Made by a program: the position numbers and the translations under genes. Positions 26,442 to 54,924 of a DNA stretch of 64,000 nucleotides are shown in pieces. The DNA lies in NCBI GenBank assembly GCA_964489065.1, contig CAZAXH010000009.1, forward strand, positions 7,616-71,615, given 5' to 3'. This DNA comes from an uncultured Planctomycetales bacterium (GTDB taxonomy: Bacteria; Omnitrophota; Gorgyraeia; Zapsychrales; JANLHA01). How positions within the stretch are numbered: position 1 is the first letter of the stretch; each line of letters begins with the position of its first letter. Below the pieces are notes generated by a model. The model did no database searches. It saw only the letters and a list, made by a program, of their open reading frames with translations, and had not been told where the DNA came from.

Positions 26442-26447
26442 TGTATT

Positions 26448-28310: not shown

Positions 28311-28313
28311 CGT

Positions 28314-32500: not shown

Positions 32501-33469
32501 TCACGTGTTTCTCGTCCAGGCTAATATTCTTTCCGCCACGCTCCGCGCGTCCATCTGATAATGCCGATGAATGTGCTCCCGACCGCAGAATTCACGGCAG
32601 TCCCCGTCCGGCCAGGCCATCCTAAAAAAAGGAACCCGGCATCCCGCATCCGCGCACACTTCGATTAAAGAAGTCCCCAGCCCGCCAATCCGGGAGTTCT
32701 CTTCCAAAGACACAATCCGGGGAGAATGAAGCATTACGTCCAGCAAGGCCTGTTCATTCAGCGGCTTGAGGCGGTAAACATCAAAAACGCCGACGGAAAG
32801 CCCGACACGGGATAAAATTTCCTTCGCCGCGATGGCCTGGTGAACCATAAGGCCGGTCGCCAGGATCGAAAGGTCTTTTCCCGCCCGGAGCTGCGCGAGC
32901 CCCTCCCGAAAACCTCCGGCGGCTTCTTCATAAAGCACCGGCAGGCAGCCTTTCTCCAGCCGGATATACACCGGGCCCAGGTGTTCATACGCAAGGCGAA
33001 CACTCGCCTGGGTCAGGAGCGCGTCAGAAGGGTTGTAAATCGTCATGCCCGGTAACGTCCGCATCACCGCGATATCATGCAGAGCGTGGTGCGTCGGCCC
33101 GTCCCCGCCGTACATAACCCCGGCGCCGATCCCCACCACTTTGACCGGGAGGTTCATGCAGCAAAGGTCGATTTTAATCTGCTCAAGGCAGCGCAAAGTC
33201 ACAAACGGCACGATGCTGTAAATAAAAACCGTCTTGCCGGCCATCGCCAGCCCGGCAGCGACACTCACCATATTTTGCTCGGCGACGCCGACGTTAAAAT
33301 ACTGCTTTGGAAAATCCTGTTTAAACCGCTGAAGGCTGAACGCCCCCATATCCGCGGTCATAAAAATCACGTTTCGATCCTCGCCGGCCAAGCGGTACAG
33401 CTCGTCAAAAAATGCGTCCCGGACATCCACCCCGGCCGAAATTTTATTTTCAAGCCCTTTCGTCAACAT
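32501..33469 (-). CDS. transketolase, C-terminal (pyrimidine-binding) subunit of a split transketolase
   Basis: 322 aa with the Pyr domain and transketolase C-domain. It overlaps the N-terminal subunit gene by 7 nt. Confidence 0.8.
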   Translation of the reverse strand: MLTKGLENKISAGVDVRDAFFDELYRLAGEDRNVIFMTADMGAFSLQRFKQDFPKQYFNVGVAEQNMVSVAAGLAMAGKTVFIYSIVPFVTLRCLEQIKIDLCCMNLPVKVVGIGAGVMYGGDGPTHHALHDIAVMRTLPGMTIYNPSDALLTQASVRLAYEHLGPVYIRLEKGCLPVLYEEAAGGFREGLAQLRAGKDLSILATGLMVHQAIAAKEILSRVGLSVGVFDVYRLKPLNEQALLDVMLHSPRIVSLEENSRIGGLGTSLIEVCADAGCRVPFFRMAWPDGDCREFCGREHIHRHYQMDARSVAERILAWTRNT

Positions 33470-34299
33470 GACATCCCCTTTAACGCGTCAAACGCCCGCG
33501 CCGCCTGTTCCCCCTTCGGCACGCCGTGGTGCCATTCCAGACAACTCTCCATAAAAGGGACGCCTTTACCTTTAACGGTTTTGGCGATAATCATCAAGGG
33601 CCTTACGGACGTTCGTTCCCTGTTCCCCGTCAAAGCAGACAATAAAGAGTTAAAGTTATGTCCATCGACCTCGCTGACGTCCCACCCGAAGGCCTTCCAT
33701 TTTTCAGCCAAAGGGTCAAGCGCCGTACAATCTTCCAACCTGGCCGTGACACACATACCGTTATTATCCACGACCGCAATAAGGTTCCGGAGTTGATGCT
33801 GGGCGGCGAACATGGCAGATTCCCAGACCGCCCCTTCACAACATTCCCCGTCCCCCATAAGGACAAATGTCAGATAATCCGCGCCATCCAGCCGCGCCGC
33901 CAACGCCAGTCCGCAACCGACCCCCAGTCCGTGCCCCAGAGAACCGGTGTCCGCCTCTATCCCGGGAATGGAACGGTCCGGATGCCCACCCAGGATACAG
34001 CCGGGCTGCTGGTATCGCATCAGTTCCGTTTGCGGGAAAAAACCCTGATCAGCGAGAATACAATAAAGCGCTTCGCAGGAATGCCCCTTGCTTAAAATAA
34101 ACCGGTCCCGGCCGGGCCAATCCGGCTGATGAGGGTTAAGCCGCAACACCCCGCCGTAATAAAGCGCGACCAAAATATCCGTGCAGGAAAACGCCCCGCC
34201 GATGTGGCCTTTGCCGGCGCGCGCAATCATCTCAAGCGTCTGAATCCGGACATCCATGGCTTTTCGGGACAAGAATAAAATAGTGCTATCCGTCGGCAT
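33463..34299 (-). CDS. transketolase, N-terminal (ThDP-binding) subunit of a split transketolase
   Basis: GHIGGAFSCTDILVALYYG and GDGECCEGAVWESAMFAAQHQLRNLIAVVDNNG (the GDG...NN ThDP motif). Confidence 0.8.
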   Translation of the reverse strand: MPTDSTILFLSRKAMDVRIQTLEMIARAGKGHIGGAFSCTDILVALYYGGVLRLNPHQPDWPGRDRFILSKGHSCEALYCILADQGFFPQTELMRYQQPGCILGGHPDRSIPGIEADTGSLGHGLGVGCGLALAARLDGADYLTFVLMGDGECCEGAVWESAMFAAQHQLRNLIAVVDNNGMCVTARLEDCTALDPLAEKWKAFGWDVSEVDGHNFNSLLSALTGNRERTSVRPLMIIAKTVKGKGVPFMESCLEWHHGVPKGEQAARAFDALKGMSC

Positions 34300-35815
34300 G
34301 CTCGTGCTTTCTCTTAAAAGAAATTTTTATATTCCGTAAAATCCGGGCCAGCACGCCTTCCAACTTCGTGGTCGTTCTTCCATGAAAGGCGTTGCACGCC
34401 AGACGCCATACCCGCCGGGGATGGGTTAAAAGCATCAGACTGTAGAAATGGCTTAGCAGCGCGAATCTCATCACGCTCAATGTGCGCGGGCCGAAATGCT
34501 CCGACCAGGACACGGCTTTGCTGAGGTCGGCGTAGCCGAATAAGTTCAGAAAATAATCATCGGATAATATCAATTTCTTCCGCCGCAAAAAATCATTGAA
34601 CAATTCCGAGCCGGGGTAAGGGATAAACGGAAACACATTGAGCTCCTGTAACCCCGTCAACGCCAAACGCGACACCATCCGGAACGTTTGGAAAAAAGCC
34701 TTCCAGCCTTCCTGGGGTAACCCGATAATGATGTTCGTACTCAAGTTCATCCCCACCTCAAGGCCATCCCGAATCAGTTGAAACATCTTTTCCGGATCGA
34801 TCTTCTTACGGACGCTTTCTAAAACATCCCGGGAGCCCGATTCCATGGCAAAGTCCAGATCCCGGCAACCGGCCTGCCGCATCCGTTCCAGCACAAAACG
34901 GTCAACCGCCTCGGTGCGCAGCGTGGGCAGCTGCCAAGTCACCCTGATTTTACGCTGTATTATTTCCTCACACAAGCCTATTATATTTTCTTTTTTGATG
35001 ACAGCCGTCAAATCGGAAAACACAAAATTGTCCGCATGATATTCCTTTATACAATGCTCCATCTCATCCACGATGTCCCGCGCGTTCCGGGGGACCCACG
35101 GACGGCCCCACATATGCGTGTTGGAACAAAAGGTACATTGGTAGGGACAGCCGCGCGTGGCCAGGATCGGGATCGTCCGCCCTCTCCGGATATGATAGGT
35201 ATACCCACGGGATAAATAATTCTCCAAAGGCACCAGGTCCCATGCCGGCCAGGGCAGGGCATCAATATCATGGATCCTCGGCGCGCGGGGTGTCTGGCGA
35301 AGCGCTCCCCCTTGAGGAAGGCGGATGACCAGACCGGCAACTTCGGTAAGAGGCGTCTTTTGTTGGAGCGCCTGTAAAAATTGTTCCGCCACCCTTTCCC
35401 CTTCGCCCACGACGCAAATATCCAAAGCCGGGCAATCCTTGAGGCAATACTCGGGCAGCGCGCTCACGTGTTCCCCACCGGCAAAAAACACGCTTCCGGG
35501 GTGCCACTCCCGCACCTGGCCTATCAATTCCCGATGGAAAGGCCAATCCTGGGAAAACATGCAGGTAAAACCAAATACATCCGAAGGTTTAAGCCGGGTA
35601 CGCAGCGCAGAAACGGGCATTCCGTGCCGGATAAAGGATCCCCGGACGATCTCGGCCCGGGAAATATCTTCCCCGCACATGTCAACGATGTCTACGTCAT
35701 GGCCGGCCATGCGCAAGGCAGCCCCGAGATAAACAACGCCTAAATAAGGGACAAGTTGCGCGCCCATGAACCCCCGGCTGCTGTAAGCAGGGGGACGGAT
35801 AAGGGTTACTTTCAT
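34286..35815 (-). CDS. B12-binding (class B) radical SAM enzyme
   Basis: N-terminal B12-binding domain (MKVTLIRPPAY...DIVDM), then ATRGCPYQCTFCSN CxxxCxxC. Confidence 0.75.
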   Translation of the reverse strand: MKVTLIRPPAYSSRGFMGAQLVPYLGVVYLGAALRMAGHDVDIVDMCGEDISRAEIVRGSFIRHGMPVSALRTRLKPSDVFGFTCMFSQDWPFHRELIGQVREWHPGSVFFAGGEHVSALPEYCLKDCPALDICVVGEGERVAEQFLQALQQKTPLTEVAGLVIRLPQGGALRQTPRAPRIHDIDALPWPAWDLVPLENYLSRGYTYHIRRGRTIPILATRGCPYQCTFCSNTHMWGRPWVPRNARDIVDEMEHCIKEYHADNFVFSDLTAVIKKENIIGLCEEIIQRKIRVTWQLPTLRTEAVDRFVLERMRQAGCRDLDFAMESGSRDVLESVRKKIDPEKMFQLIRDGLEVGMNLSTNIIIGLPQEGWKAFFQTFRMVSRLALTGLQELNVFPFIPYPGSELFNDFLRRKKLILSDDYFLNLFGYADLSKAVSWSEHFGPRTLSVMRFALLSHFYSLMLLTHPRRVWRLACNAFHGRTTTKLEGVLARILRNIKISFKRKHEHADG

Positions 35816-35822
35816 AGTGACG

Positions 35823-36860
35823 TCATGTTTTTAAATCTTCCGTGCTACAACAGCTGGTTCCTTTATTTTTCTTGTAAATCGGATGGGCCCACATGCTGGA
35901 GATGAGGTAACGAAGGCCTTTGTCCTTCACATTTCCGAAGGAATGCGGGAACGTGACGCAGAGCTGAATATCACCGTAAGGAGAGATATTAAGTATCCGC
36001 CCTCTTAACGCCTGGCACACCTTGGTTTTGCCCTTTACGGAATACGCTCCTTCAATAAACGCGAACGAAGGGTCCATATTTTCTATCACCAGCCTCTTTT
36101 CCGACTCCGACAGCTCTATCTCTTTCTTCTTGACCCATTCTCCCGAGATGATCGGGAATAATATCCTGATGCCCGCGGCCCGGAGTGATTTCGAAAATTG
36201 AATAACCGCGGTCAAAGCGCTGTCATCACGGGGGGTCGCGAAACTTTTAATCCTCCTCCGGGTGACGTATGTGGACACAATACAGGGGATGTTCTCCTCA
36301 TGGCAGCCCCGCACCGCCTCCACCGCCCGGCGGTACACCCCCGGCAGGCCGCGCAGGCAGTCATGCTCCTTTTCCTCCACGCTGTCCAGGCTGACATTAA
36401 TGCAACTGATCCCCGCGTCTTTAAGATTTTTGATCATCGGACGGCTCAAAAACCAGGCGTTGGTCGTCAAAGAGATATACAGCCCCAAACTTTCCCCGTA
36501 GCGGACCAGCTCAACGATGTCTTTGCGCAAAAGCGGCTCCCCTCCGAAATAATCCACCTTGGGGATTCCCATCGCAACAGCCTCCTCCAGGATTTTTTTG
36601 ATCTCTTCGGTCTTTAATTCCCGATTCAAGTCAGCGTCGCTGAAATAATTGGATACCGAACAATGCTTGCAGCAGCAGTTACACCGGTACGTCACGGACA
36701 ACTCGATAAGCCAGGGAATTTTTCGGCGGAATATTTGTGTTAAAACCCAGTACCGGGACATCACGTACGCTTTCCGGGGTGTCATGCGGCTTAAGCCAAC
36801 CCGGGCGTAGAGCCGCATCATCCCGAGGAAACGTTTAAAATCTTTCCATAAACTTTTCAT
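35823..36860 (-). CDS. radical SAM enzyme with C-terminal SPASM/twitch-type auxiliary cluster domain
   Basis: VTYRCNCCCKHC (CxxxCxxC), GGEPLL, and a C-terminal Cys cluster (CQALRGRILNISPYGDIQLCVTFPH...GTSCCS). The start is taken at ATG (MKSLWKD) with GAGGGA 7 nt upstream; the track start is an upstream TTG. Confidence 0.7.
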   Translation of the reverse strand: MKSLWKDFKRFLGMMRLYARVGLSRMTPRKAYVMSRYWVLTQIFRRKIPWLIELSVTYRCNCCCKHCSVSNYFSDADLNRELKTEEIKKILEEAVAMGIPKVDYFGGEPLLRKDIVELVRYGESLGLYISLTTNAWFLSRPMIKNLKDAGISCINVSLDSVEEKEHDCLRGLPGVYRRAVEAVRGCHEENIPCIVSTYVTRRRIKSFATPRDDSALTAVIQFSKSLRAAGIRILFPIISGEWVKKKEIELSESEKRLVIENMDPSFAFIEGAYSVKGKTKVCQALRGRILNISPYGDIQLCVTFPHSFGNVKDKGLRYLISSMWAHPIYKKNKGTSCCSTEDLKT

Positions 36861-36926
36861 GTTAAATCCCTCATGATAACGACGTCGATTCAAGGATATA
36901 TATAAGCTCCCATGATTTGCCCGTGT

Positions 36927-36992
36927 TCAAGCGAGCCCTATTTCTCCGCAAAAAACTGTGGTGTCGGGCTCTAATTCACTCTGGCAACCCAT
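36927..36992 (-). CDS. candidate 21-aa peptide (MGCQSELEPDTTVFCGEIGLA) immediately upstream of a SPASM radical SAM gene; speculative
   Basis: ATG with AAGGGG 5 nt upstream. It lies on the same strand in the 177-nt gap between the PHP gene stop and the radical SAM start. It is a short ORF only, with no homology claim. Confidence 0.15.
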   Translation of the reverse strand: MGCQSELEPDTTVFCGEIGLA

Positions 36993-37037
36993 GGGAGCCC
37001 CTTGTGAATCCACCTCCCCATCCTATACAATTCCCGC

Positions 37038-37937
37038 TCACAGGCAATCTTTACCGACAAAAAAGGCTCCTCTATCGGGTTCCAGGAAAACCTTGTTTTC
37101 TTCTTCATAACGGCTGATATCATCCCTCGCGTGCAGGCGCCGCGTCGCGCAGTCCCAGCACAGATAGTGCCCGTTACAGCAGGCCACGCGCGCCACCTCG
37201 ATCTTGCCGCACTCGCTACAACGAAATCTTTTCTTAAAAACCCGAACCCGCATCGATTTGCCACACACCAGGCACAACGTAGCATGAAGAGCACACGGTT
37301 CCAGGTCTCGGTATTTCAAAAAATTCTTCATGATAAACTTAAACGGCAAAGGGAGCGGTTTTCCGGAAACCCTGGTCCGGCCCCTCCGGATCGCGTCCAG
37401 GATTTCCTCCGGGCGATCGGCCAGGACTTCCGTGTACCCCTGTCCGATAAACGACGCGTCCGTTGTGTCCGTTCCCCCGACATGAGCCAAAGGCAGCCCC
37501 CGCGCCAGGTAACGGGCCAGCAGGTTATAAACGCCCACGGAACCAAGCGCCGCGTTGTAAACCTCCACCGCGTCAAAAGGCAGACGACGGATTCTCCCAC
37601 CCAATCCAAGATGCAAATACGGGTGAACCGCGACCGCGAGCCCCCCCTGGGCATGGATTTGAGCGAGGGTCTCTTCCACACTCAGGAAGTCCTGAATCTT
37701 CCTTTTTATCCCCAAGGCGATCACGTGCCCGGCTGCCGTCCATATTTCCTGCCCAACAAGGATGACAAATTCCGGGAGCTTTTCCTGCAGCCAAACGGCG
37801 TGCGTGACGTTAAAAAAATTCGTGACTGCGAGCCCGTCCATGCCGCTCCGCCGCAGGCTCTCTTTGAGCTGAAACTCGTTCATAAACGTACGGCCGAACG
37901 ATTGGGTGTGTGTATGCAAATCGAGTTTAAAAGACAT
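37038..37937 (-). CDS. PHP-domain metal-dependent phosphoesterase with C-terminal zinc-ribbon
   Basis: N-terminal LDLHTHTQSF...GLAVTNF (PHP motif I/II). C-terminal CLVCGKS...CSECGK...CCNGHYLCWDC Cys cluster. Confidence 0.65.
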   Translation of the reverse strand: MSFKLDLHTHTQSFGRTFMNEFQLKESLRRSGMDGLAVTNFFNVTHAVWLQEKLPEFVILVGQEIWTAAGHVIALGIKRKIQDFLSVEETLAQIHAQGGLAVAVHPYLHLGLGGRIRRLPFDAVEVYNAALGSVGVYNLLARYLARGLPLAHVGGTDTTDASFIGQGYTEVLADRPEEILDAIRRGRTRVSGKPLPLPFKFIMKNFLKYRDLEPCALHATLCLVCGKSMRVRVFKKRFRCSECGKIEVARVACCNGHYLCWDCATRRLHARDDISRYEEENKVFLEPDRGAFFVGKDCL

Positions 37938-39043
37938 TAATCCTCTTTCTCCCGGGGATCCGCCTTACGGCTCCGCCAGGCAATCTGCGCCATTTCCCAA
38001 AAAATTTTCGGATAAGACCGAGGCGAAAGCATGAGCGTGTTGGACATGGGCAGGCCCCAGTGACAGGTACAGTCCTCCCTCTTCATCCTCCGACGGAACT
38101 GTTTCATCTCCTCCGAAGCAAGGATTTGTTTCAGGTCATAGCCGTTAGACCTCAACTGCCCGACGGGCTCCCACAAGGGTTCGCACGGGAACACGGTTCC
38201 GGTCTCGTTGATGACAACGACCGCCCGGCCCGCCCGGCAGATTTTATGCATATCTTTGCGTTCCAAAATATCCTTCAGCAAATCATTCTTGGCGGCCCGC
38301 AACGCCATGGTGAAAATGGAATGAACATCCGTCACCCGGCGGGCTCGGGCCCGCGACCGCAGCCGCCCGCAAAAACGGAAATACTTCTCCCAGCCAAAAC
38401 GCATCGCCTCGGCGTTACAGACGCTCCCGTGGGCGACAGAAAAAACGACCCGGTCGAATTCGGGAAAATCATTCCGGAGGATTTCAAACAGCGGCTCCAT
38501 GTGGTCCTGGTTATAGGCGGAATAGACCACACACGCCTTCAAGCGGAAATTCCGGTACCGTTTTCTTAACGGCACCAGCATCCGGTATGTCTCCCGCACC
38601 TTCTTAAACCCATCTTTAAGGCCACGGATTTCATCATGAATCTCCGGCGGGCCATCAATGGAAAGCTGTGTGTCCACGATCATATTCGGACAGGCCCGCG
38701 CAATTTTTTCAATCTGGGACGCCACCCGGTCCGGGAAAAAGGCGTTGGTCGGCAGATCAACGACGGCCGGAGAACAATGACGGTATAAAATTTCAACAAT
38801 ATGGTACAAGTCCGGCCGGAGGAACGGTTCCCCTCCGGAGATCCCCAGCACGTTGATCAAAGGGATCCTGCGGGCAATCTTTTCATATTCGTCAAGAGTC
38901 AGTTCATCTTTAGCGGCGTTGCTGTCCATGTTCTCTCTGTAAAAACACATTTTGCACGCCGCGTTGCAGCGGGCCGTGACAAAAAAGATCATGTAAGAAG
39001 GCCAGCGGCCGGTTTTTAAAAGACGGGTCAACAGAGACGGCAT
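37937..39043 (-). CDS. radical SAM enzyme (SPASM/twitch-type C-terminal domain)
   Basis: FFVTARCNAACKMCFY (CxxxCxxC), GISGGEPFL, and a C-terminal FPCEP...CTCHWG Cys cluster. Its stop overlaps the PHP start. Confidence 0.7.
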   Translation of the reverse strand: MPSLLTRLLKTGRWPSYMIFFVTARCNAACKMCFYRENMDSNAAKDELTLDEYEKIARRIPLINVLGISGGEPFLRPDLYHIVEILYRHCSPAVVDLPTNAFFPDRVASQIEKIARACPNMIVDTQLSIDGPPEIHDEIRGLKDGFKKVRETYRMLVPLRKRYRNFRLKACVVYSAYNQDHMEPLFEILRNDFPEFDRVVFSVAHGSVCNAEAMRFGWEKYFRFCGRLRSRARARRVTDVHSIFTMALRAAKNDLLKDILERKDMHKICRAGRAVVVINETGTVFPCEPLWEPVGQLRSNGYDLKQILASEEMKQFRRRMKREDCTCHWGLPMSNTLMLSPRSYPKIFWEMAQIAWRSRKADPREKED

Positions 39044-39044
39044 G

Positions 39045-39863
39045 TCATTTCTCCTTCGGAACCGCCCGGTAAGCCGCAGTCTTCAAGAAGAAACGGATCG
39101 GGAGCAGCCGGGCCACGAAAGCTTTGGCGGCATTGGGCCAGTCGGTCAGGACCCGGACCTTGTTTTCCGTTAAGCCTTTTAACCCGATCCGGGCGACATC
39201 CTTGGGGTCGGACGCGCTATGCCAGTGCTGCACTGCCCCGCCGGTCGCCCGGGATAAAAACCGGCTATGCGTCCGGCCGGGGTAAAGCCCGGTGACATGG
39301 ACGCCGTGCGGCAGCATTTCCTGGTGCAGGGCGTCGGTCAGCCCGATGATAAAATGTTTCGTCGCCGCGTACACGGCCGAGCCGGGGATCGTGTAAAACG
39401 AAACGACCGACCCGACGTTTAAGACCCCGGTTCCGGAACGACCTTTCATCACAGGCAAAAAACTCCGGCACAGGAGGACCACGGCGTCTATATTGACCTT
39501 TAACATGGACAGCCCGGTTTCCTCCGGCATGGAAATAAAGTCCCCCATATATCCGAATCCGGCGTTATTGATGAGAATATCCACCTGATGGCGGCTCTGG
39601 ACGGCCCGGCACATCTCGCGGACTTTCTGTTCCTCTCCCAAATCAAAACAACAGGTCTCCATAACCGTCTGCCGCGCCGGCTGGTCCAGTTCGGATTTCA
39701 GGGACGACAGCGCCTCCTGACTGCGTCCGCAAAGAATCAAACGGCTGCCGCAGGCCGCCAGAATGCAGGCCATCTCCCTCCCGATCCCCGCTGTCGCACC
39801 GGTCAAGAGCACTGTTTTACCCCTGTACCATTCTTTCCAGTTATGGTTTTGAGTTCGAGCCAT
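39045..39863 (-). CDS. short-chain dehydrogenase/reductase
   Basis: KTVLLTGATAGIGREMA...NNAG...YAATKHF (TGxxxGIG, NNAG, YxxxK). RBS AAGGAGAA lies 5 nt before the ATG. Confidence 0.8.
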   Translation of the reverse strand: MARTQNHNWKEWYRGKTVLLTGATAGIGREMACILAACGSRLILCGRSQEALSSLKSELDQPARQTVMETCCFDLGEEQKVREMCRAVQSRHQVDILINNAGFGYMGDFISMPEETGLSMLKVNIDAVVLLCRSFLPVMKGRSGTGVLNVGSVVSFYTIPGSAVYAATKHFIIGLTDALHQEMLPHGVHVTGLYPGRTHSRFLSRATGGAVQHWHSASDPKDVARIGLKGLTENKVRVLTDWPNAAKAFVARLLPIRFFLKTAAYRAVPKEK

Positions 39864-40158
39864 TGTGTTCTCCTTGAATTTTCCTCTTTCCCCATTCCTT
39901 GTTAAAACCGTTGCGTTACCCTTTTATTCGAAAACCCGCCTGGCCGCCATTATTCCGTTGCCCGGAGAAAGGAGACAAAACGCGGGGTCCGGGCAGCAAC
40001 GCCGTCCCAACAAAGTCATTCCACAAAATTCCCCGGTAAACCCGAATCGATATAAAAAAATCCCGCTCCTTCCCGATTTCCCGAATAAGCGGCTCAAGAA
40101 AAAAACAGGCCATAATACAAAAGACCAGCGACAGGAATAAAATTTTAAACAAGGTTGA

Positions 40159-41100: not shown

Positions 41101-41159
41101 GGTTTTTATTATATAAAACCTGCTTAATTCCTGGTTTCACGCGAGAGGGCCTAAAACCT

Positions 41160-46880: not shown

Positions 46881-46909
46881 ACCACACCCTCACGGGAACA
46901 AAAGCAAGG

Positions 46910-47969: not shown

Positions 47970-47989
47970 AATCGCGTTCTATCCTTTGT

Positions 47990-48712
47990 TCAGGGAATAA
48001 ACCAATAATAATCCCCTTGATACCCCGCCTCCGCGAAAAACTGTTTCCATTCTTCCACGTGCATATACGTCTGTGCGGTCAGATTCCAAGCATCCATACG
48101 CCGCTGGTCCTCTTCATTCCGGTAGGCATCCACGGTAATGAAAGCATACCGCCGGGACACGCGCTGAATTTCCTGCAGGGCTTTCCGGCAGGCCTCCCGT
48201 TCAAGATTGTGAATCGTGTTGATGGAGATGACAAGGTCGAATGAGGCGTCCGGGAAAGGCAACTCCCGAGCGTCGGCTTTCCGTAAAAACGGTTTTACTT
48301 CCGCCTTCGCGTTTTCCAAAGCATAATCCGAAATATCGACACCGGCGACCACGATTCCCGGGATCAACGTCATGAAATCATACAGCATAAAACCTTTACC
48401 GCACCCGATGTCCAGAATACGGGTTCCGGACGCAATCCCATACTGCTCCTGAAAAGCAGGGACCACCGGCTGCCAGAAACGGGGCTGATAGCTGTAACCG
48501 CCGTAACCGTATCGCCGGTCGCCGTCAAAGAAATCCCGGCCAAAAAGACGGGCGATCTTTTTCTCCTCCTCCGTCTTGGTACGCAGGCGTTCGTTTAAGT
48601 CCCGACGTGTCTGCGGATAGCGGGCTAATAAATTAATCTCTCCCATAAATATAGAAACCACGGATCTAGAAAAATTATTTCGAGCCGCACCGGATATTGG
48701 CCGTGCCCTCAT
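47990..48712 (-). CDS. class I SAM-dependent methyltransferase
   Basis: ILDIGCGKGFMLYDF (motif I), later DLVISINTIHNL. Start uncertain (alternative ATG at 48646). Confidence 0.7.
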   Translation of the reverse strand: MRARPISGAARNNFSRSVVSIFMGEINLLARYPQTRRDLNERLRTKTEEEKKIARLFGRDFFDGDRRYGYGGYSYQPRFWQPVVPAFQEQYGIASGTRILDIGCGKGFMLYDFMTLIPGIVVAGVDISDYALENAKAEVKPFLRKADARELPFPDASFDLVISINTIHNLEREACRKALQEIQRVSRRYAFITVDAYRNEEDQRRMDAWNLTAQTYMHVEEWKQFFAEAGYQGDYYWFIP

Positions 48713-49499
48713 CCTGTTTGCCCGCCGGAAACCCGCAGCATCGCATCACGTCCGCGGACCGGTGTAAGGCAGCGGAACTGATCCTTATCGGCTTTTTATT
48801 AAACTCCAGGTTATGGCTCAGTTTGATTTCCCTGACCAGTTTAAAAAACGTGGACACCACGTCCAGGAAACTTTTCAGCCCCAGGGACGAACTCCCTTCC
48901 ACCCCCGTCTGCATATATCCAGGGATCTCATGAAACGTGCACCCGGAGCGCAGGCATTTAATGGTCAATTCGGCGACGATGCTGAAGCGTTTCGACCGGA
49001 TACGGAAGCCGCGGATCTTGTCGGTTGGATAAATGCACGGGCTGTTAATATACTGGATAAAAACGTTAAACACGCACATATACACCAGCCCGTACAGGGC
49101 GGAGATCACGTTGCGCAGGCGGCCGCGGTCTTCCTTATTGATGAAATAAGCCAGAATTAAATCCGCTTTATCGTAATTCCTAAACAGGCTCGTGATCAGG
49201 TCCGGCGCCATGTCGTTATCTCCAGGCACGATCATGAATTTAGGGTACCGCGCCTGGGCCAGGGCGTCTTTAATGCACACCCCCAAGCCCGAATTCTCCG
49301 CATGGTGAATCCCTCGCACGCAGGGAAATTCTTTTTCCAATTCCGTGATAATCTGCCCCGTGCGGTCGCGGCTCCCATCATTGACGATAATAATCTCGAT
49401 CGTGAGCGCCCCCGCCGCTTCGGCGGACCGCACGATGTTCTTCACCGTTTCACGGAGAAGATCCTCCTCGTTATAAGCCGGTACGACAACCGATATCAT
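48675..49499 (-). CDS. family 2 glycosyltransferase
   Basis: MISVVVPAYNEEDLL...IIIVNDGSRDRT...MIVPGDND (GT-A DxD). Confidence 0.8.
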   Translation of the reverse strand: MISVVVPAYNEEDLLRETVKNIVRSAEAAGALTIEIIIVNDGSRDRTGQIITELEKEFPCVRGIHHAENSGLGVCIKDALAQARYPKFMIVPGDNDMAPDLITSLFRNYDKADLILAYFINKEDRGRLRNVISALYGLVYMCVFNVFIQYINSPCIYPTDKIRGFRIRSKRFSIVAELTIKCLRSGCTFHEIPGYMQTGVEGSSSLGLKSFLDVVSTFFKLVREIKLSHNLEFNKKPIRISSAALHRSADVMRCCGFPAGKQDEGTANIRCGSK

Positions 49500-51255
49500 C
49501 CGACACCCCCATAATTTGCCGCAGTTCTTCCGCCGGGAGTTTGGGATCGAGATCCTCCAACCCGGCCCCGAACTTCAGCATGGGAACAATTTTCTGGTCT
49601 TTGACAATCTCCGCCACGCAAAGCACGGGCCCGGGCGTTTTGAAAATTCGCTCGAGCGCGGGCTTTATGTCCGCGTGGTCTTTAATATTCACGTACGGCA
49701 GGTTAAAACCGGCGGCGATAGCCTGAAAATCCGGGAAATACAAACCGCTGGCCTCATCAACCGCCGTATAACGGGAGTTCAGCCATGTGTCAATGGTCTG
49801 CCGTTGAATCCCGTGCCCCTGGTTAAACATGATAAAAATCTTAACCGGCAAATCGTAGCGCCGCACCGTGCCCAGTTCTTCCAGGCTCATCATAATACCC
49901 CCGTCGCCGGTGACGCACGCCACCTCGCCTCCGCCCGCGCACGCCGCCCCCACGCTCGCCGGCAGCGCATAGCCCATCGGCGTGTGGTTCCAGGCGGAGA
50001 TGATCCGCTGCTGCGGCTTCACCCGGAACGTCTGCATGGTCCAGGCGAGATTGGCGCCGGTATCCGCGACGACCACGCTCCCTTCCGGCAGCGCCGCGGA
50101 CAACTCGTTAATAAACACAACGCCGTCCACCCGTTCCTGTCTCTGATAACGCTCCGGCGTGCAGACCGGATAGGTCTTTTGCCAGGTTTTGATATGCTCC
50201 CGCCACGGGGAGAAAGGATCGCCGGAACCCGGCGCCGGACGGGCGTCTGCCAAAGCGGCAAAAAAGTCACGCAGATCCGCTTCAATGGCCAGGTCAAGAC
50301 ACAATTCATCCGGGGTGAATTTCATCAATTCTTCCCGGTCAATATCAACCATCACTTTTTTCGCGCCGGGAGCGAAAAGAGACGGCTTCCCTCCCGTGAT
50401 CATCTGGCACAACCGGGTGCCCAGGGCGATGACGAGATCAGCGTTCTGCACGGCAAAATTTCCCGCCCGGGGCCCGCACACGCCCAGGCCGCCCATGTTA
50501 AGCGGATGATCCACCGGCACGATATCCTTCCCCCCCCAGGTCAACAGAACCGGTAAGCCGAAATTCTCCAAAAACCGCACGGCCTGCCCTGCCGTCCGGG
50601 AGATCGACACCCCAGCGCCCATAATGACGATCGGCCGCCGGGATTCCCGCAACAGAGCCAGGAGTTCATCCGCCGGCCCCCGCAGGTCCGCAGCCCCGGC
50701 ACCGGGAGGGACAAAAGCCTTCAAAGTGTCCGGCGCAATATCGGCCCGCTGCAGGTCGTCCGGGATATCCAATAGCACCGGGCCCGGCCGTCCCTCCTGG
50801 GCCAGGAAAGCCGCTTTTTCCAATTCGTAACGGATATCCTCCGGCCGCCGCACCTGCACGACGTATTTCGTGATGGATTTAAAAACGGCCACCACGTCGG
50901 TTTCCTGAAAGCCTTTCTGGCGCAGGGCCGCGCTTTTTTTGATGCGGAACGTGGCGACCTGGCCGCAAATAAAAATCACGGGGATCGAATCAAAGAACGC
51001 GTTGGCCACGCTAGTCGTCAGGTTCGTCGCGCCGGGGCCGCTTGTCACCATGGCCACCCCCGGGCACCGGGCGATACGGGCGTACCCGTCGGCCGCCGCG
51101 CCCGCCCCCTGCTCATGCTGGGTGCACACAACCCGCAAAGACGGATGCCGGGCGGCCGAATCGACCGAATGAATGATCGCCCCGCCGGAAACAAGGAACA
51201 CGTGCGTGATCCCCTGCCGGGCCAGAAAATCCGCCACATAATCGGAAAGCTTCAC
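49471..51255 (-). CDS. thiamine-diphosphate enzyme of the acetolactate-synthase (IlvB) superfamily
   Basis: VKLSDYVADFLARQGITHVFLVSGGA... N-terminal Pyr domain and C-terminal GDGGIMMSLEELGTVRRYDLPVKIFIMFNQGHG ThDP motif. The start is assigned to GTG at 51255, whose GTGA overlaps the stop of the upstream methyltransferase. The tracked ORF extends 83 codons further, wholly inside that gene. Confidence 0.75.
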   Translation of the reverse strand: MKLSDYVADFLARQGITHVFLVSGGAIIHSVDSAARHPSLRVVCTQHEQGAGAAADGYARIARCPGVAMVTSGPGATNLTTSVANAFFDSIPVIFICGQVATFRIKKSAALRQKGFQETDVVAVFKSITKYVVQVRRPEDIRYELEKAAFLAQEGRPGPVLLDIPDDLQRADIAPDTLKAFVPPGAGAADLRGPADELLALLRESRRPIVIMGAGVSISRTAGQAVRFLENFGLPVLLTWGGKDIVPVDHPLNMGGLGVCGPRAGNFAVQNADLVIALGTRLCQMITGGKPSLFAPGAKKVMVDIDREELMKFTPDELCLDLAIEADLRDFFAALADARPAPGSGDPFSPWREHIKTWQKTYPVCTPERYQRQERVDGVVFINELSAALPEGSVVVADTGANLAWTMQTFRVKPQQRIISAWNHTPMGYALPASVGAACAGGGEVACVTGDGGIMMSLEELGTVRRYDLPVKIFIMFNQGHGIQRQTIDTWLNSRYTAVDEASGLYFPDFQAIAAGFNLPYVNIKDHADIKPALERIFKTPGPVLCVAEIVKDQKIVPMLKFGAGLEDLDPKLPAEELRQIMGVSDDIGCRTGL

Positions 51256-51947
51256 GGGCTTTTCCTCTCTTTCAGGCCGACCCCCATGCCGAAAATATAA
51301 TGCGCCATCGGCCCATAGCCGGTGTGCAGGACCTCGTCGTTCATCCCGAACATAAAAACATTGCGGAAATATTTTTCCATAAGCCCGCGCAAGGTCTTCT
51401 GGCTCATCAAATTGATATGCTGAATTTTGCTGCGGTACGTGGCGTACCGGTTGGCGGTGATATTCGGCGTACCGATCAGACACACGCCGTCGGGGGTCAG
51501 GCACCGCGCCTGGTTTTCCATAAACGCCCGGTTTAAATGCGGGTCCAGATGCTCGATCACGTCGATGGAATAAACGCCGTCAAACCTTTCCTCCGGAACC
51601 TGCCGGCAGATGTCCATCTGGCGGAAAACCACGTTCTTGATCTTTTTAAGCCGCTGCCGGTTCCCCCGGATAAGCCGCGCCACCGGATCGACCCCAACCA
51701 CGCGGGGCACCTGCTGGGCCACAATCGGGATGCCCATGCCGTCGCCGCAGCCCACTTCCAGAACGGCTTTTTTCCCCTCCAGCATTTTAGCGCAAAATTT
51801 ATACCGCGCCAAGACAAAGCCCAGGTGTTTAGGGTCGTGAAGCAGGCTGTAGGATGACCACGGCCCCAGTTTCAGGGACGGGATAAACTGATGATCCGTT
51901 CCCAGTTTAAGCGCTTCAGCTTGCGAAAGTGTCTTATTTTTTTTCAT
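51252..51947 (-). CDS. class I SAM-dependent methyltransferase
   Basis: VLEVGCGDGMGIPIV (motif I), VYSIDVIEHL (motif II/III region). Confidence 0.75.
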   Translation of the reverse strand: MKKNKTLSQAEALKLGTDHQFIPSLKLGPWSSYSLLHDPKHLGFVLARYKFCAKMLEGKKAVLEVGCGDGMGIPIVAQQVPRVVGVDPVARLIRGNRQRLKKIKNVVFRQMDICRQVPEERFDGVYSIDVIEHLDPHLNRAFMENQARCLTPDGVCLIGTPNITANRYATYRSKIQHINLMSQKTLRGLMEKYFRNVFMFGMNDEVLHTGYGPMAHYIFGMGVGLKERKSP

Positions 51948-52836
51948 GGCACCTTTTCTTTCTCGTTAAGAATTCATGCGACCCGCGCGTCTCCAAAGAG
52001 CTCTCCGGCAAACTCCCGTGCCGCCGCAATTTATAAAGATGCGGATTCTGTGCAAGCCGCTTCATAAGCTCCCGGCCCCCGTCGGCTTTCCAGGGATCAT
52101 GGACAACGGAAAAATTACGTCCCGAGGCCACGGTCTTCCCGGCCCGGATAAAGCGTTCGATGCAGTCATAAATATCCTGGTACGGCGTGCCGTCTTCCGT
52201 TTTCAAATACCGCACGGTCGCGCGGTATTTGTCCTTCGGGACATGCGGGTCATTTAAAACAGCCTGGTGAATCTTCGTCCTGGTCCATCCCGGCCCGACG
52301 ATGAACACATTCATATCCTGGTTTTCGGCATCCAGATATTCGCACATCTTGATGAGCATCAATTTGGACACCGTGTAAGCGGAAAAATTCCTGACCGGCT
52401 TGTTCACCCCTCCTCCGGCGAAGAAAACCACGTGCGTCCGGACGCGGGCCTTTCTCAAAGGATATAATGCGTGCAGCGCCCGCAGCTGCGCCAGGGCGTT
52501 GACTTCGACGGACTCTCTCCATCGCCCGAAGTCAGCCGCGAAAAACGCCTGGACCGGACAGGGGTCGCCCGCGCAGGAGATAAAAATATCCCACGGCGCC
52601 TTGAGCCCTTGATACCGCTTCAGGCAGCGTGACAGGCTGGCGGGTTTGGCGATGTCACAGCGGAGCATTTCACAATTCGGATACGCAGAAAGAGCGCTGA
52701 CCCCGGAAGAAGGCGTGCGGTATGTTCCGATCACCCGGTAGCCTTTTTTCAGATATTGCCCGGCGATGAATAAGCCGATGTCACTACTAGCCGCCAACAT
52801 AAAAACGGTTTTAGAACATTTCCCCACGGATCCCAT
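51934..52836 (-). CDS. short-chain dehydrogenase/reductase
   Basis: KTVFMLAASSDIGLFIAGQYLKKGYRVIGTYRT (TGxxxGIG-like), YTVSKLM (YxxxK). Start taken at the ATG giving MGSVGKCSKTVF. Confidence 0.65.
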   Translation of the reverse strand: MGSVGKCSKTVFMLAASSDIGLFIAGQYLKKGYRVIGTYRTPSSGVSALSAYPNCEMLRCDIAKPASLSRCLKRYQGLKAPWDIFISCAGDPCPVQAFFAADFGRWRESVEVNALAQLRALHALYPLRKARVRTHVVFFAGGGVNKPVRNFSAYTVSKLMLIKMCEYLDAENQDMNVFIVGPGWTRTKIHQAVLNDPHVPKDKYRATVRYLKTEDGTPYQDIYDCIERFIRAGKTVASGRNFSVVHDPWKADGGRELMKRLAQNPHLYKLRRHGSLPESSLETRGSHEFLTRKKRCHEKK

Positions 52837-52916
52837 CCTCCGGCACCGGGCTTCCTGACGCCTCTCCACCGCAAACTTCTCCTATTATTATATGAGCACG
52901 GCTCCCAGCTCCAACA

Positions 52917-53951
52917 TCAATACGGCCCCAAAAACGGTGCATCTTCCTTAATCTGTTTCTTATTGTAAAAAATATCCCGGGCCAGGAGCTCCAGCGCGAT
53001 TTCAATAATCGTATGGCAGGACGGGTAAAAACAGTCTTCCAACGGTTTGGAAACCGGGCAGGGGCTGAACGCCCAGCCCACGCGCTTCACCGGCGCTTTC
53101 AGCGCCGGGAACGCCCGGTCCGCAACCAGCGCCGCCACCTCAGCGGAAAATCCGCAGGGCAGCCAGTCATTATCGACGCACATCAGCCGGCCGGTTTTCC
53201 GCACGGACGCGCAGATGGTTTCCCCGTCAACCGGCTGCAGGCACACCGGATCAATGACTTCGATCTCGATGCCCTGGCCGGATAAAATTTCCGCCGCCTT
53301 CAGCGCTTCCGAAACCATGAGCGAGGTGGCCACGACCGTCAGATCCCGCCCCTCCCGATGCACGCGTGCTTTCCCGAAAGGAACCTCATAGGGGTCTTCC
53401 GGTACCGGACCTTCCGCATCGTACAGGGCCCGGGACTCAAAAACCAGGACCGGACCGTCTGTCCTCAGCCCCCGCAAAATAAGCCCCTTTACCAAATAGG
53501 GAGAACTCGGGACAACCACGTGCAGGCCGGGATAATGCGCGCAAAGCGCCTGGATGTTCTGGGAATGCGTGACGCCCTGGCCCCAGCCTTTTCCCACAAT
53601 CGCCCGGACCAGACAAGGGACGGAGCTTTTCCCGGCATACACGTATTTCCACTTCGCCGCATTATTAAGCAGCTGATCCAAAGCCAGAAACATAAAATCA
53701 TGCCGGGCATGCACCAGAACCGGCCTTTTCCCGTTCAAAGCGGCCCCCAGCATGATCCCCGTCAGAGCGTTCTCGCTGGCGGGCGTGTCAAAAACCCTCT
53801 CGGGGCCGAACTTCAAAAAAGCGGCGTGGGTTGTTCCGAATATCCCCTTGTAATCATCCACGCCGAGCCCGAAAATAAACACATCCGGGTCCCGGAGCAT
53901 CCCCTGAACCAAGGCCTCGCTGATCGCCTCTTTATATGTTAACGTTCGCAT
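52917..53951 (-). CDS. 2-oxoacid/acetoin dehydrogenase E1 component beta subunit-like (transketolase-like Pyr and C domains)
   Basis: MRTLTYKEAISEAL...FGLGVDD...FDTPASENALTGIMLGAALNGKRPV is collinear with E1-beta. RBS GGGAGAA lies 4 nt upstream. Confidence 0.8.
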   Translation of the reverse strand: MRTLTYKEAISEALVQGMLRDPDVFIFGLGVDDYKGIFGTTHAAFLKFGPERVFDTPASENALTGIMLGAALNGKRPVLVHARHDFMFLALDQLLNNAAKWKYVYAGKSSVPCLVRAIVGKGWGQGVTHSQNIQALCAHYPGLHVVVPSSPYLVKGLILRGLRTDGPVLVFESRALYDAEGPVPEDPYEVPFGKARVHREGRDLTVVATSLMVSEALKAAEILSGQGIEIEVIDPVCLQPVDGETICASVRKTGRLMCVDNDWLPCGFSAEVAALVADRAFPALKAPVKRVGWAFSPCPVSKPLEDCFYPSCHTIIEIALELLARDIFYNKKQIKEDAPFLGPY

Positions 53952-53967
53952 CCGTTCTCCCGGAGTT

Positions 53968-54924
53968 TCAATAAATATTCTGCGGCAGGTCTTCCGCCGC
54001 CGGCCAATCACTCTTGAGCGCGGCCGCATACGCCGCGTCCGCTTGCGCCTGGAAGTCCCGGCGCAAAAGCGCGACGTCCTCAGGCGTTAAGACCCCCTGA
54101 TCCCCCAAATACCTCTCCATCCGTTTTAAAGGGCAGCGTTTCATCCAGGACTCCACCTCTTCCCGGCTCCGGTAACCCCGGTCATAATCATACAGCGGAC
54201 CGACATGCTCGCGGATACGGTAGGTCAGGCATTCCACAAAGACCGGGCCTGATCCCTGCCGCACGCCGGGGATCAGGTCCGAAACCGTTTCATAAATACC
54301 GGCAGCGTCATTCCCGTCAATTTGAAACGCAGGCAGTTCCGGGGTACGCACCCGCTCATATATCGGCGAAGGCGGCTGCCGCGCACTTAACGGAGAATGA
54401 GTGGAATACGTATTGTTCTCGCAAATAAACAATACCGGCAGCTTCTTCAACACCGCGAAATTCACACTCTCGGCAAAAACCCCCTCCTCAACTGCCGCGT
54501 CACCGAACAGGGCCACCGCAACCCCGTCCTTCCGGTCCATAACAAAAGACATGGCCGCGCCCACCGCCACCGGAATCATCGATCCGAGGATCGGAGATGC
54601 GAACACGTGTCTGTCCACGCAGGACAGATGCGCGGACCCGGCCCGGCCCCGGCTGGTGCCGGCCACCCGGCCGCAAAGCTCCGCGAAAAAAGCCTCCAGG
54701 TCTCCACCCCGGGCCAGGTAAGCGGCATGGCAACGGTGAGAAACAAAAACCTGATCGTCGGAACGCAGGGCCTGACAGACAGCGGCGGCCACGGCCTCCT
54801 GCCCGATAGAAAGGTGGGTCGGCGTACGCATCGTCTGGTCGGCATAAACCTCGGTGATTTTTTCTTCCGCCGTTCGGATGCGCAGCATGGACATATAAAT
54901 CTGTTTTAAAACGGAGTCGCTCAT
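53968..54924 (-). CDS. 2-oxoacid/acetoin dehydrogenase E1 component alpha subunit-like (ThDP-binding)
   Basis: YMSMLRIRTAEEKI..., then FGDAAVEEGVFAESVNFAVLKKLPVLFICENNTYS (GDG-type ThDP motif ...NN). Confidence 0.8.
   Translation of the reverse strand: MSDSVLKQIYMSMLRIRTAEEKITEVYADQTMRTPTHLSIGQEAVAAAVCQALRSDDQVFVSHRCHAAYLARGGDLEAFFAELCGRVAGTSRGRAGSAHLSCVDRHVFASPILGSMIPVAVGAAMSFVMDRKDGVAVALFGDAAVEEGVFAESVNFAVLKKLPVLFICENNTYSTHSPLSARQPPSPIYERVRTPELPAFQIDGNDAAGIYETVSDLIPGVRQGSGPVFVECLTYRIREHVGPLYDYDRGYRSREEVESWMKRCPLKRMERYLGDQGVLTPEDVALLRRDFQAQADAAYAAALKSDWPAAEDLPQNIY

Follow-up and report, generated by a model that had tools for sequence, protein, structure and literature searches.

A 64-kb stretch of DNA from an uncultured Planctomycetales bacterium placed by GTDB in the Omnitrophota (contig CAZAXH010000009.1; hereafter the window) encodes three thiamine diphosphate (ThDP)-dependent enzyme systems, namely a split transketolase (TK), an acetolactate synthase (ALS)-like enzyme of the YerE/JanthE type, and a stand-alone pair of E1 alpha and E1 beta subunits (E1ab) of the pyruvate dehydrogenase (PDH) type. 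We observed that these systems fall in two separable conserved modules, of which module A holds E1ab together with the YerE-like enzyme and module B holds the split TK. Judged from sequence, none of the three is a housekeeping enzyme, because all five ThDP proteins score below the NCBIfam equivalog cutoffs, no E2, E3 or IlvH was found at the locus, and the acceptor residues of acetohydroxyacid synthase (AHAS) and of TK are lost. We consider it probable that the three systems provide the carbon-carbon bond-forming steps of two sugar-tailoring modules, in which acyloin-type additions to nucleotide-sugar carbonyls would be followed by lipid-carrier-dependent glycosylation of the envelope, and the gene content suggests that the product is a surface sugar with many modifications, as yet undescribed.

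The first-pass annotation had described the three systems as parts of one operon. Pfam searches recovered all three with the gene boundaries given there and all on the minus strand, within a co-directional envelope-glycan island of ~37 kb (~25.9-62.9 kb of the window); from ~25.4 to 62.9 kb every gene is on the minus strand except one small plus-strand open reading frame (ORF) at 60177-60794, and coordinates below otherwise refer to minus-strand genes. The single operon itself is unsupported, as the genes form two tight runs with wider gaps between them. Run 1, from 57743 to 44658, comprises 13 genes with gaps of at most 47 bp and several overlaps and contains E1ab and the ALS-like gene, whereas run 2, from 36893 to 26043, has gaps of at most 72 bp and contains the split TK; seven co-directional genes lie between the runs, with gaps of 141, 144, 59, 295 and 144 bp. 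Consensus scans of the 36-46 kb interval detected 11 sites resembling promoters, where a shuffle background predicts 7.6 +/- 2.6, and 18 resembling terminators, where it predicts 15.5 +/- 4.2; these counts are at background and therefore uninformative on operon structure. We thus refer to one co-directional island, which is not demonstrably a single operon. Two other Omnitrophota genomes keep the whole cluster in synteny, from a B12-binding radical S-adenosylmethionine (SAM) gene at 62.9 kb to a response regulator at 25.4 kb, with ~73-82% protein identity, and the gene arrangement is therefore not due to chance.

Active sites and tails of the five ThDP proteins

The best Pfam and NCBIfam matches of the three systems are to PDH E1, acetolactate synthase and transketolase, and the proteins retain the ThDP motifs and the residues of the catalytic core, as in a scenario where an ordinary PDH E1, AHAS and pentose-phosphate TK have been embedded in a polysaccharide cluster. 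We regard this scenario as largely refuted and extremely improbable. In addition to the sub-cutoff scores, phmmer searches of six-frame ORFs with the E. coli proteins AceF (E2), Lpd (E3) and IlvH as queries (E <= 1e-3) found no homologue of any of them in the window or in ~58 related loci; dozens of genomes retain the linkage to sugar genes, and the AHAS acceptor residues and TK phosphate-site residues have been replaced, as set out below. The absence of E2/E3 partners and of amino-acid-biosynthesis neighbours, on which the first-pass annotation had relied, was borne out across the 64-kb window by Pfam/family scans and phmmer. Its broader claim, that the locus performs branched-chain-sugar chemistry rather than central metabolism, is likewise supported by the scores, the missing partners, the active-site changes and the sugar-type neighbours, which include NDP-sugar epimerase/dehydratases, GT2, GT9-like and GT-C glycosyltransferases, and methyltransferases. 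The underlying premise, that three ThDP routes exist for the C-branching of keto-sugars (YerE-like enzymes of the decarboxylase (DC) superfamily, E1ab pairs of the alpha-KADH2 type, and split TKs), is stated in a 2025 review (PMC12247030), and YerE-like, E1ab and putatively also split-TK enzymes add acyl-anion equivalents to keto-sugars (PMC12247030, PMC9306805).

The ALS-like gene (49471..51255; PF02776, PF00205 and PF02775) has a longest ORF of 49471-51504, within which we place the true start at a GTG codon at 51255 on the basis of a ribosome-binding site and an overlap with the stop of the upstream methyltransferase gene, giving a protein of 594 aa; an identical gene call is present on a public contig. 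The protein reaches 371.8 bits against TIGR00118, for which the cutoff is 538.35, and it is likewise below cutoff for the other AHAS models. We classified it by diagnostic residues and indels in alignments with E. coli IlvI and structures in the PDB. Its three-domain ThDP fold and catalytic Glu are intact, with HEQ and GDGG conserved in the alignment with IlvI. In AHAS, the Arg of the RFDDR motif binds the 2-ketoacid acceptor and the Trp of the QWxD motif sets acceptor specificity. In the window enzyme and its family, RLCQM stands at the RFDDR position and Thr at that of this Trp, and HMMER alignments to solved structures revealed the same two changes, the loss of RFDDR and Thr for Trp, in JanthE (8rph). 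The window enzyme and JanthE also have in common a 6-aa insertion before the GFQE motif that is missing from AHAS, and a C-terminal LEDLxPxxP tail (LEDLDPKLP in the window enzyme). Among solved structures JanthE ranks first (306 bits), ahead of AHAS I (294 bits). Sequence identity is 32-34% to plasmid-borne IlvB/IlvG, as against 55-64% within the family across phyla and domains of life. That this enzyme is not IlvB, as the first-pass annotation had held, is thus upheld by the sub-cutoff TIGR00118 score, the lost RFDDR and Trp, the indels shared with JanthE and the lack of a detectable IlvH. We also considered a phosphonopyruvate decarboxylase of a phosphonate pathway and rejected it, given the full three-domain architecture and the lack of any phosphoenolpyruvate-mutase family member among the ORFs scanned.

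JanthE is itself a YerE-like enzyme (PMC12188165, PMC12247030), and the window enzyme resembles YerE (which acts with YerF in yersiniose A biosynthesis in Yersinia pseudotuberculosis), JanthE, ErwE and MyGE of the DC superfamily in being an AHAS-like three-domain ThDP enzyme without a small subunit. It resembles the YerE-like lyases further in its lost acceptor residues and its JanthE-type insertion and tail, and, as with YerE and YerF, an SDR (short-chain dehydrogenase/reductase) adjoins it within a surface-glycan cluster (PMC9306805, PMC12247030). It differs from them in forming a tight family of its own, all of whose members come from metagenome-assembled genomes (MAGs), and from JanthE in having the canonical GDG motif where JanthE has CDG. 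Unlike YerE, the window family is linked to heptose-nucleotide genes and not to a CDP-3,6-dideoxyhexose pathway, and it is usually paired with E1ab, a pairing undescribed for YerE systems. Two peptides serve as signatures of the family, [IV]TGGK[QTP]xLFA and SAWNH[TS]PM, and their matches in the genome collection are all to MAGs.

E1 alpha (53968..54924; 318 aa) is the ThDP-binding subunit of a stand-alone, putatively alpha-KADH2-type pair and matches PF00676 (E 1.2e-52), but reaches only 256.7 bits against TIGR03182 (cutoff 393.85); an exact copy is present on a Logan contig. E1 beta (52917..53951; 344 aa; PF02779 and PF02780), with its start as in the L001 gene call, reaches 285.2 bits against NF006667 (cutoff 321). 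The best solved relatives of both are PDH E1 subunits, and E1 beta keeps the catalytic His, with His129 (GVTHSQ) equivalent to His128 of the Geobacillus stearothermophilus protein (1w85_B), so that this residue does not discriminate between dehydrogenase-complex and carboligase roles. The E1 beta proteins of the ALS-linked family carry a conserved C-terminal F-x-G-P-F/Y tail, ~20-30 aa past the end of canonical PDH E1 beta, in ~30 orthologues. In the window the tail reads FLGPY within the region 52917-52990, and it was also seen in the ALS-family loci L004-L056 and in L064 and L065. Among the 150 best matches (50%-cluster representatives) from a search of 1.84 billion, 46 had the FxGP[F/Y] tail, including alpha-beta fusions of 660-710 aa, and E1 beta homologues on Streptomyces and Azospirillum plasmids end in it as well.

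The pair can be likened by context to AlmDI/DII (aldgamycin), AviB1/B2 (avilamycin) and KbDH-alpha/beta (kibdelomycin), which are also stand-alone E1ab pairs without E2/E3 in sugar-tailoring clusters with an adjoining NDP-sugar SDR. Whereas those pairs are found in actinomycete antibiotic clusters, the window type occurs in envelope-glycan clusters of Omnitrophota, the Planctomycetes-Verrucomicrobia-Chlamydiae (PVC) group, the candidate phyla radiation (CPR) and DPANN archaea. Its E1 beta carries the conserved FxGP[F/Y] tail.

The split TK consists of an N-terminal, ThDP- and pyrophosphate (PP)-binding subunit of 278 aa (TK_N; 33463..34299; PF00456, E 1.9e-45) and a C-terminal subunit of 322 aa with the pyrimidine (Pyr) and C domains (TK_C; 32501..33469; PF02779 and PF02780). 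All TK domains (N, Pyr and C) are present with the ThDP motif, and the best solved relative of both subunits is the split-chain TK of Carboxydothermus hydrogenoformans (247 bits for TK_N with 6yak, 173 bits for TK_C with 6yak/6yaj), with which they share the fold and conserved ThDP and donor-site residues. Sugar-phosphate binding in human TK involves Arg318, Ser345, His416 and Arg474, as known from the TK structural literature, and we compared the corresponding positions. TK_C keeps the first Arg (human Arg318) and an Asp, but compared with both the Carboxydothermus and human enzymes it has Gly for the phosphate-site His (GIGAG), Phe for Ser and Lys for Arg, giving a non-canonical acceptor site. 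The phosphate-site His is gone throughout the TK_C family, including distant orthologues and the Azospirillum relative described below. TK_N orthologues occupy the same cluster position in four further loci (L059, L060, L062 and L063), and a housekeeping TK was rejected on the basis of the active-site residues together with this conserved position.

The nearest described counterparts are the miharamycin and amipurimycin split TKs, which are also encoded by two genes in a sugar-modification cluster and for which the acceptor is likewise predicted not to be a sugar phosphate (PMC12247030). All 13 predicted cases of split-gene TKs for keto-sugar hydroxyacetylation are from Streptomycetes, and none has been characterised (PMC12247030). 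Members of the window family, in contrast, come from Omnitrophota and Firestonebacteria, and a relative at 42% identity from Azospirillum; the window TK is flanked by radical-SAM/B12 enzymes and a polyprenyl-phosphate GT2.

Modules A and B across genomes and in cultured relatives

With a profile of the ALS-like family, 53 loci (L004-L056) were retrieved from 185,579 species-representative genomes; their hosts are among the Omnitrophota, Planctomycetales, environmental Chlamydiae, Woesearchaeota, Gottesman- and Andersenbacteria, Verrucomicrobia, Nitrospirales, Acidobacteriota, Neomarinimicrobiota, Gammaproteobacteria and Rickettsiales. Neighbours of the ALS-like gene were counted by BLAST with the window proteins and by de novo clustering of all ORFs in the 53 loci. 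The commonest is the SDR that follows E1 beta in the window (SDR_c), which is present in 33/53 loci by family clustering and 36/53 by blastp and is often directly adjacent. E1ab accompanies the ALS-like gene in 31/53 loci, or 21 of the 28 with full 10-kb flanks, and the two methyltransferases MT_b and MT_a do so in 31/53 and 27/53, or in 34/53 and 27/53 by blastp. An NDP-sugar dehydratase/epimerase occurs in 29/53 (in 28/53 that of the window, Epim_b), a Zn-alcohol dehydrogenase in 24/53, and a small GT2 in 23/53; by blastp, the window-type GT2 (GT2_b) is in 24/53, usually with a GT-C next after it. Heptose-nucleotide genes are found in 21/53 loci and in 18 of the 28 with full flanks; they encode a GmhA-like SIS protein, an HldE-like kinase/adenylyltransferase and a GmhB-like phosphatase, or an HddA/HddC-like kinase/guanylyltransferase, and they match the Pfam/NCBIfam models below cutoffs. 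Module A as a set (E1ab, SDR, methyltransferase, YerE-like enzyme, GT2 and GT-C) thus recurs in Omnitrophota, Planctomycetes, environmental Chlamydiae, CPR and Woesearchaeota, usually by NDP-heptose genes, and the order radical SAM, GT9, epimerase, E1 alpha, E1 beta is kept in Omnitrophota and Planctomycetales loci.

Module B has the order SDR, radical SAM/SPASM, PHP hydrolase, radical SAM, B12-binding radical SAM, TK_N, TK_C, SDR, polyprenyl-phosphate-type GT2, GDP-fucose-synthase-like enzyme and B12-binding radical SAM, and this order is kept in L059, L060, another Omnitrophota genome (L062) and Firestonebacteria (L063); the Firestonebacteria locus has a GHMP kinase and another E1ab pair after module B. 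Every TK pair that we saw is adjoined by a gene like SDR_a, the SDR directly after the TK in the window. More distant split TKs lie beside the ALS-like gene in four loci, without E1ab in L015 and L037 and with E1ab in L047/L057 and L052; true TK_N was confined to these, and the 24-26% TK_C matches in many loci were rejected as cross-matches to E1 beta. As an observation in its own right, comparison of L015 and L037 (ALS-like gene and TK, no E1) with L063 (module B and E1ab) makes TK and E1ab appear interchangeable or additive.

Module B could alternatively constitute a separate lipid, cofactor or peptide-modification pathway built of the split TK and its five radical-SAM/B12 enzymes, so that only two ThDP systems would act on sugars. 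The radical-SAM genes have weak and diffuse matches to HpnJ/HpnR, BchE, ApyD, AhbD/NirJ and the ladderane B12-binding radical-SAM enzyme, L062 has module B but not module A, and gaps of 141-295 bp separate the two modules in the window, all of which would suit such a pathway. Against it, the TK pair in every genome examined is flanked by an SDR, a GT2 resembling dolichyl- or undecaprenyl-phosphate hexose transferases and a GDP-fucose-synthase-like enzyme, neither precursor-peptide nor lipid-synthesis genes were seen, and the best cultured TK_C homologue lies amid sugar genes (see below). The weak matches of the radical-SAM genes also include the BlsE and AprD4 models, and the action of radical-SAM and B12-binding radical-SAM enzymes on sugars is well established, as in GenK, AprD4 and BlsE. 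We therefore regard a separate pathway as decidedly unlikely and favour a role for module B in sugar tailoring.

Cultured relatives were found by tblastn against plasmids, with E1 beta relatives at 47-53% identity. On plasmid pDMC1 of Solidesulfovibrio magneticus RS-1, genes for two GT2 enzymes, a radical-SAM protein, a NUDIX protein and a kinase precede E1 alpha and E1 beta, which are followed by genes for a fucose-synthase-like enzyme, a DegT aminotransferase, an epimerase, a nucleotidyltransferase, a lipid-carrier glycosyltransferase (GT-C) and a SIS protein. On AZO_p6 of Azospirillum lipoferum 4B, E1ab is followed by a DegT aminotransferase gene amid GT2, GT41 and sulfotransferase genes. 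A DegT aminotransferase after E1ab in these analogues recalls the transaminated branch of kibdelomycin (PMC12247030). Plasmid pAB510f of Azospirillum sp. B510 carries the best TK_C relative from a cultured organism (42%), in a cassette of kinase, NUDIX, TK_N, TK_C, epimerase/dehydratase, aldo-keto reductase, TylF-type sugar O-methyltransferase and glycosyltransferase genes, beside which there is also a radical SAM/SPASM and tetratricopeptide-repeat (TPR) pair as in the window. TK in Azospirillum B510 thus occupies the slot that E1ab takes in A. lipoferum and S. magneticus; because these kinase-NUDIX cassettes contain either TK or E1ab, the two are in equivalent slots, which suggests that they are alternative C2-donor enzymes. 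E2/E3 genes were found beside none of the cultured E1 homologues of Streptomyces griseofuscus, A. lipoferum and S. magneticus.

Several observations weigh against assigning the ThDP systems to sugar chemistry, and they bear on the main competing explanation, in which the ThDP enzymes make non-sugar units such as acyloins, hydroxy-ketones or carrier-bound acyl or glycolyl groups that later become O- or N-substituents of the glycan. The closest cultured E1 beta homologue (52.6%), on pSGRIFU1 of S. griseofuscus, is encoded beside a condensation-domain protein, an acyl carrier protein (ACP), a phosphopantetheinyl transferase and ketosynthases, so the E1 clade is not confined to sugar chemistry and at least part of the tailed clade feeds carrier-bound assembly. 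E1 beta has the His used for lipoamide acylation and needed for acyl transfer to a thiol, and it may thus have an acyl-transfer role. The Zn-alcohol dehydrogenase and SDRs associated with module A could process free hydroxy-ketones. JanthE outscores AHAS I by only 12 bits as a match to the ALS-like enzyme, all 53 ALS-family loci come from MAGs, which span at least 10 phyla and include no cultured species representative, and the window itself carries neither a nucleotidyltransferase nor a heptose-precursor gene, so that the scaffold sugar can only be read from relatives. The Streptomyces context keeps the non-sugar explanation alive, but it is disfavoured because the glycan loci have no carrier or acyltransferase genes: the window yielded no ACP and no condensation, acyltransferase or lipoyl protein, and the ~58 related loci no E2 homologue. 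Furthermore, the constant neighbours are NDP-sugar dehydratase/epimerases and heptose-nucleotide genes, and the ALS-like enzyme has the diagnostic features of a ketone-accepting YerE-like enzyme. Taking these points together, we judge non-sugar products unlikely, and retain acyloin-type additions to nucleotide sugars as the preferred reading.

Gene content of the island and delivery machinery

The tight block that contains module A opens with a radical SAM protein (56826..57743; a weak PF04055 match, taken from the L001 gene call, with a conserved position), followed by a GT9-like protein of the heptosyltransferase fold (55910..56842; PF01075, E 1.9e-11) and the NDP-sugar SDR epimerase/dehydratase Epim_b (54921..55931; PF01370 and PF16363), which is directly upstream of E1 alpha and resembles GalE, RmlB and HldD below their cutoffs. 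Downstream of E1 beta are SDR_c (51934..52869; PF00106), a candidate side-chain ketoreductase with a YerF-like role, and the class I SAM methyltransferase MT_a (51252..51947; PF13489 and PF08241), which is translationally coupled to the ALS-like gene. Next after the ALS-like gene are GT2_b (48675..49499; PF00535), a second class I SAM methyltransferase (MT_b; 47990..48646; PF08241 and PF13649), two small membrane proteins of 168 and 175 aa (46910..47969) and a 740-aa membrane protein (44658..46880).

The 740-aa protein has ~12 hydrophobic segments, its orthologues carry PF09586 (YfhO), and its AlphaFold2 model (pLDDT 86) has top Foldseek matches that are all to GT-C enzymes (EmbB, Stt3, AglB, ArnT and PglB), at modest E-values of 6e-4 to 1e-1 and TM-scores of 0.3-0.46; the model indicates that it has a GT-C fold, and we predict a lipid-carrier-dependent, YfhO-like glycosyltransferase. 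Each of the two small membrane proteins begins with 3-4 transmembrane (TM) segments and ends in a region resembling a winged helix (marginal matches to HTH_20 and HTH_45 at relaxed Pfam thresholds). The pair recurs in the interval from GT2 to GT-C in Omnitrophota, Planctomycetales, Gottesmanbacteria and a gammaproteobacterial MAG, and the two proteins may serve as partners in flipping or regulation. The arrangement is similar to the ArnC/ArnT, GtrB/GtrV and CsbB/YfhO systems, which likewise combine a small polyprenyl-phosphate GT2, small membrane proteins and a GT-C/YfhO-like transferase. It differs from these three-component systems in its more elaborate route to the donor sugar, with ThDP carboligases, radical-SAM enzymes and a carbamoyltransferase, and in that its small membrane proteins resemble winged helix-turn-helix proteins and do not have GtrA or EamA folds.

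Next come a polytopic membrane protein of 712 aa with 11 hydrophobic segments (42378..44516), for which we found no Pfam match even at a relaxed threshold and which is possibly a second GT-C or a polymerase, and, between the two blocks, a radical SAM/SPASM protein (41160-42233) and a TPR protein (40159-41100), all three of which are syntenic in relatives. The island differs from both Omnitrophota relatives in the interval between the TPR gene and the first SDR of module B (SDR_b), where the window has a 295-bp gap (39863-40159) and both relatives have an extra 536-aa gene without Pfam match; one relative also has extra copies of the B12-binding radical-SAM gene, and we noted no further differences. 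The upstream part of module B (34286..39863; Pfam and NCBIfam) comprises SDR_b, a radical SAM/SPASM protein, a PHP-family hydrolase, a radical SAM protein and a B12-binding radical SAM protein. The hydrolase, a PHP/CehA-family metallohydrolase at 37038-37937 among the radical-SAM genes, has at residues 220-268 a weak match to the MbdU (metal-binding double selenoprotein) model.

Directly after the TK is SDR_a (31694..32479; PF13561), followed by a polyprenyl-phosphate sugar transferase-like GT2 (GT2_a; 30896..31621; PF00535), which has sub-cutoff NCBIfam matches to AglJ, dolichyl-phosphate hexose transferase and ArnC, and a GDP-L-fucose-synthase-like epimerase/reductase (Epim_a; 29926..30894; PF01370; NF047922 at 152.6 bits, below cutoff). 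Module B ends (25872..29882; Pfam, and a small ORF) with a B12-binding radical SAM protein and a conserved trio (25872-28310) made up of a carbamoyltransferase of the NodU/CmcH type, a membrane protein resembling SxtJ and a small membrane peptide of 54 aa resembling DUF5989. L059 and L060 carry all four as well, there with a called DUF5989. The trio, which lies at the cluster end, suggests that the glycan is O-carbamoylated.

Stand-alone response-regulator receiver proteins flank the cluster at 25443-25865 and 62947-63327, the former with a counterpart at the same cluster end in both Omnitrophota relatives. Upstream of the module A block, a 675-aa protein (57992-60019) consists of a single TM segment at the N-terminus and, after it, a coiled coil rich in E/K/Q/L; the region is of low GC (0.42) with strongly negative AT skew, the sequence seems to contain internal repeats, and the position of the protein is kept in both relatives. 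It was considered as a third GT-C and rejected in view of the single TM segment and E/K/Q/L-rich coiled-coil repeat. The nearest genome to the window is the Candidatus Omnitrophota chromosome OY759724.1, and TK proteins 96% identical to those of the window are labelled Candidatus Omnitrophota at NCBI. MdoG/MdoH, a PEP-CTERM protein and an extracytoplasmic function (ECF) sigma factor are also encoded in the window, a complement consistent with a diderm bacterium. Outside the island, a 902-aa protein at 16927-19635 contains many TPR and ankyrin repeats; ankyrin repeats are uncommon in free-living bacteria and would suit a host-associated lifestyle.

Proposed chemistry of the two modules

In module A (57.7-44.7 kb), we propose that the SDR epimerase/dehydratase would generate a carbonyl on a nucleotide sugar, which relatives suggest may be ADP- or GDP-heptose. 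Stand-alone E1ab would decarboxylate pyruvate to hydroxyethyl-ThDP, the YerE/JanthE-like enzyme would activate a 2-oxo acid, and each would add its acyl-anion equivalent to a sugar carbonyl, producing a C-acyl branch or a chain extension. The adjoining SDR would then reduce the new ketone, following YerE/YerF logic, and the two methyltransferases would decorate the product. In module B (39.9-26.0 kb), the split TK with its altered acceptor pocket may take a glycolaldehyde (two-carbon) unit from a donor of the ketose or hydroxypyruvate type and pass it to the carbonyl of a non-phosphorylated sugar; the neighbouring SDR would reduce the product, and the B12-binding and other radical-SAM enzymes and the carbamoyltransferase would modify it further. 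For both modules, a small GT2 would load the sugar onto polyprenyl phosphate, and after flipping, GT-C enzymes of the YfhO-like type would transfer it to an envelope acceptor. The donors, acceptors, regiochemistry and order of steps in this scheme, the action of E1ab and the YerE-like enzyme on the same sugar, and the final acceptor are what we infer.

This scheme modifies the first-pass annotation in two respects. The latter had proposed the attachment of two-carbon branches to deoxysugars or cyclitols, and the epimerases, glycosyltransferases and methyltransferases agree with a sugar context, but the scaffold of module A, as read from relatives, is likely a heptose and not a 3,6-dideoxyhexose or cyclitol. 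A two-carbon branch stands as one option, but there may instead be chain extension at an aldehyde or a longer acyl donor, the latter having a precedent in ErwE/MyGE (PMC9306805).

Each enzyme type is already known, and what is new is their combination, the uncultivated, non-actinomycete envelope-glycan setting, the heptose linkage and the widespread pairing of E1ab with the YerE-like enzyme. Literature searches on split transketolase and sugar biosynthesis, on heptose and YerE, and on Omnitrophota and radical SAM found no description of modules A or B. Tentatively, and with more doubt than we attach to the sugar-tailoring role itself, we speculate that the two modules encode an undescribed class of heptose-derived surface sugars that are multiply C-branched or chain-extended, C/O-methylated and carbamoylated, and that the modules themselves spread by horizontal transfer among uncultivated, often host-associated lineages (Omnitrophota, Planctomycetes, environmental Chlamydiae, CPR bacteria and Woesearchaeota). 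In this more ambitious picture, YerE-type and E1-type enzymes would act on the same nucleotide sugar, the remodelled TK would be a third, interchangeable C2 route, and the FxGP[F/Y] tail would mark a dedicated clade of stand-alone carboligases.

Higher-carbon and C-branched sugars are uncommon, and they are often immunodominant. The ThDP carboligases that act on them are wanted as biocatalysts for chiral tertiary alcohols (PMC12247030). The families described here have recognisable signatures, namely the JanthE-like indels of the ALS-like enzyme, the loss of the acceptor-site His in TK and the FxGP[F/Y] tail of E1 beta, and cultured surrogates exist in S. magneticus RS-1 (pDMC1) and on Azospirillum plasmids. 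If the more ambitious picture is true, these would be the first sugar C-C bond-forming enzymes of the alpha-KADH2 and TK types outside actinomycete antibiotic pathways. The locus suggests that all three proposed ThDP routes occur outside actinomycetes, where they are joined in one glycan island, and that the pairing of E1ab with a YerE-like enzyme is a widespread conserved module of lineages represented by metagenomes only.

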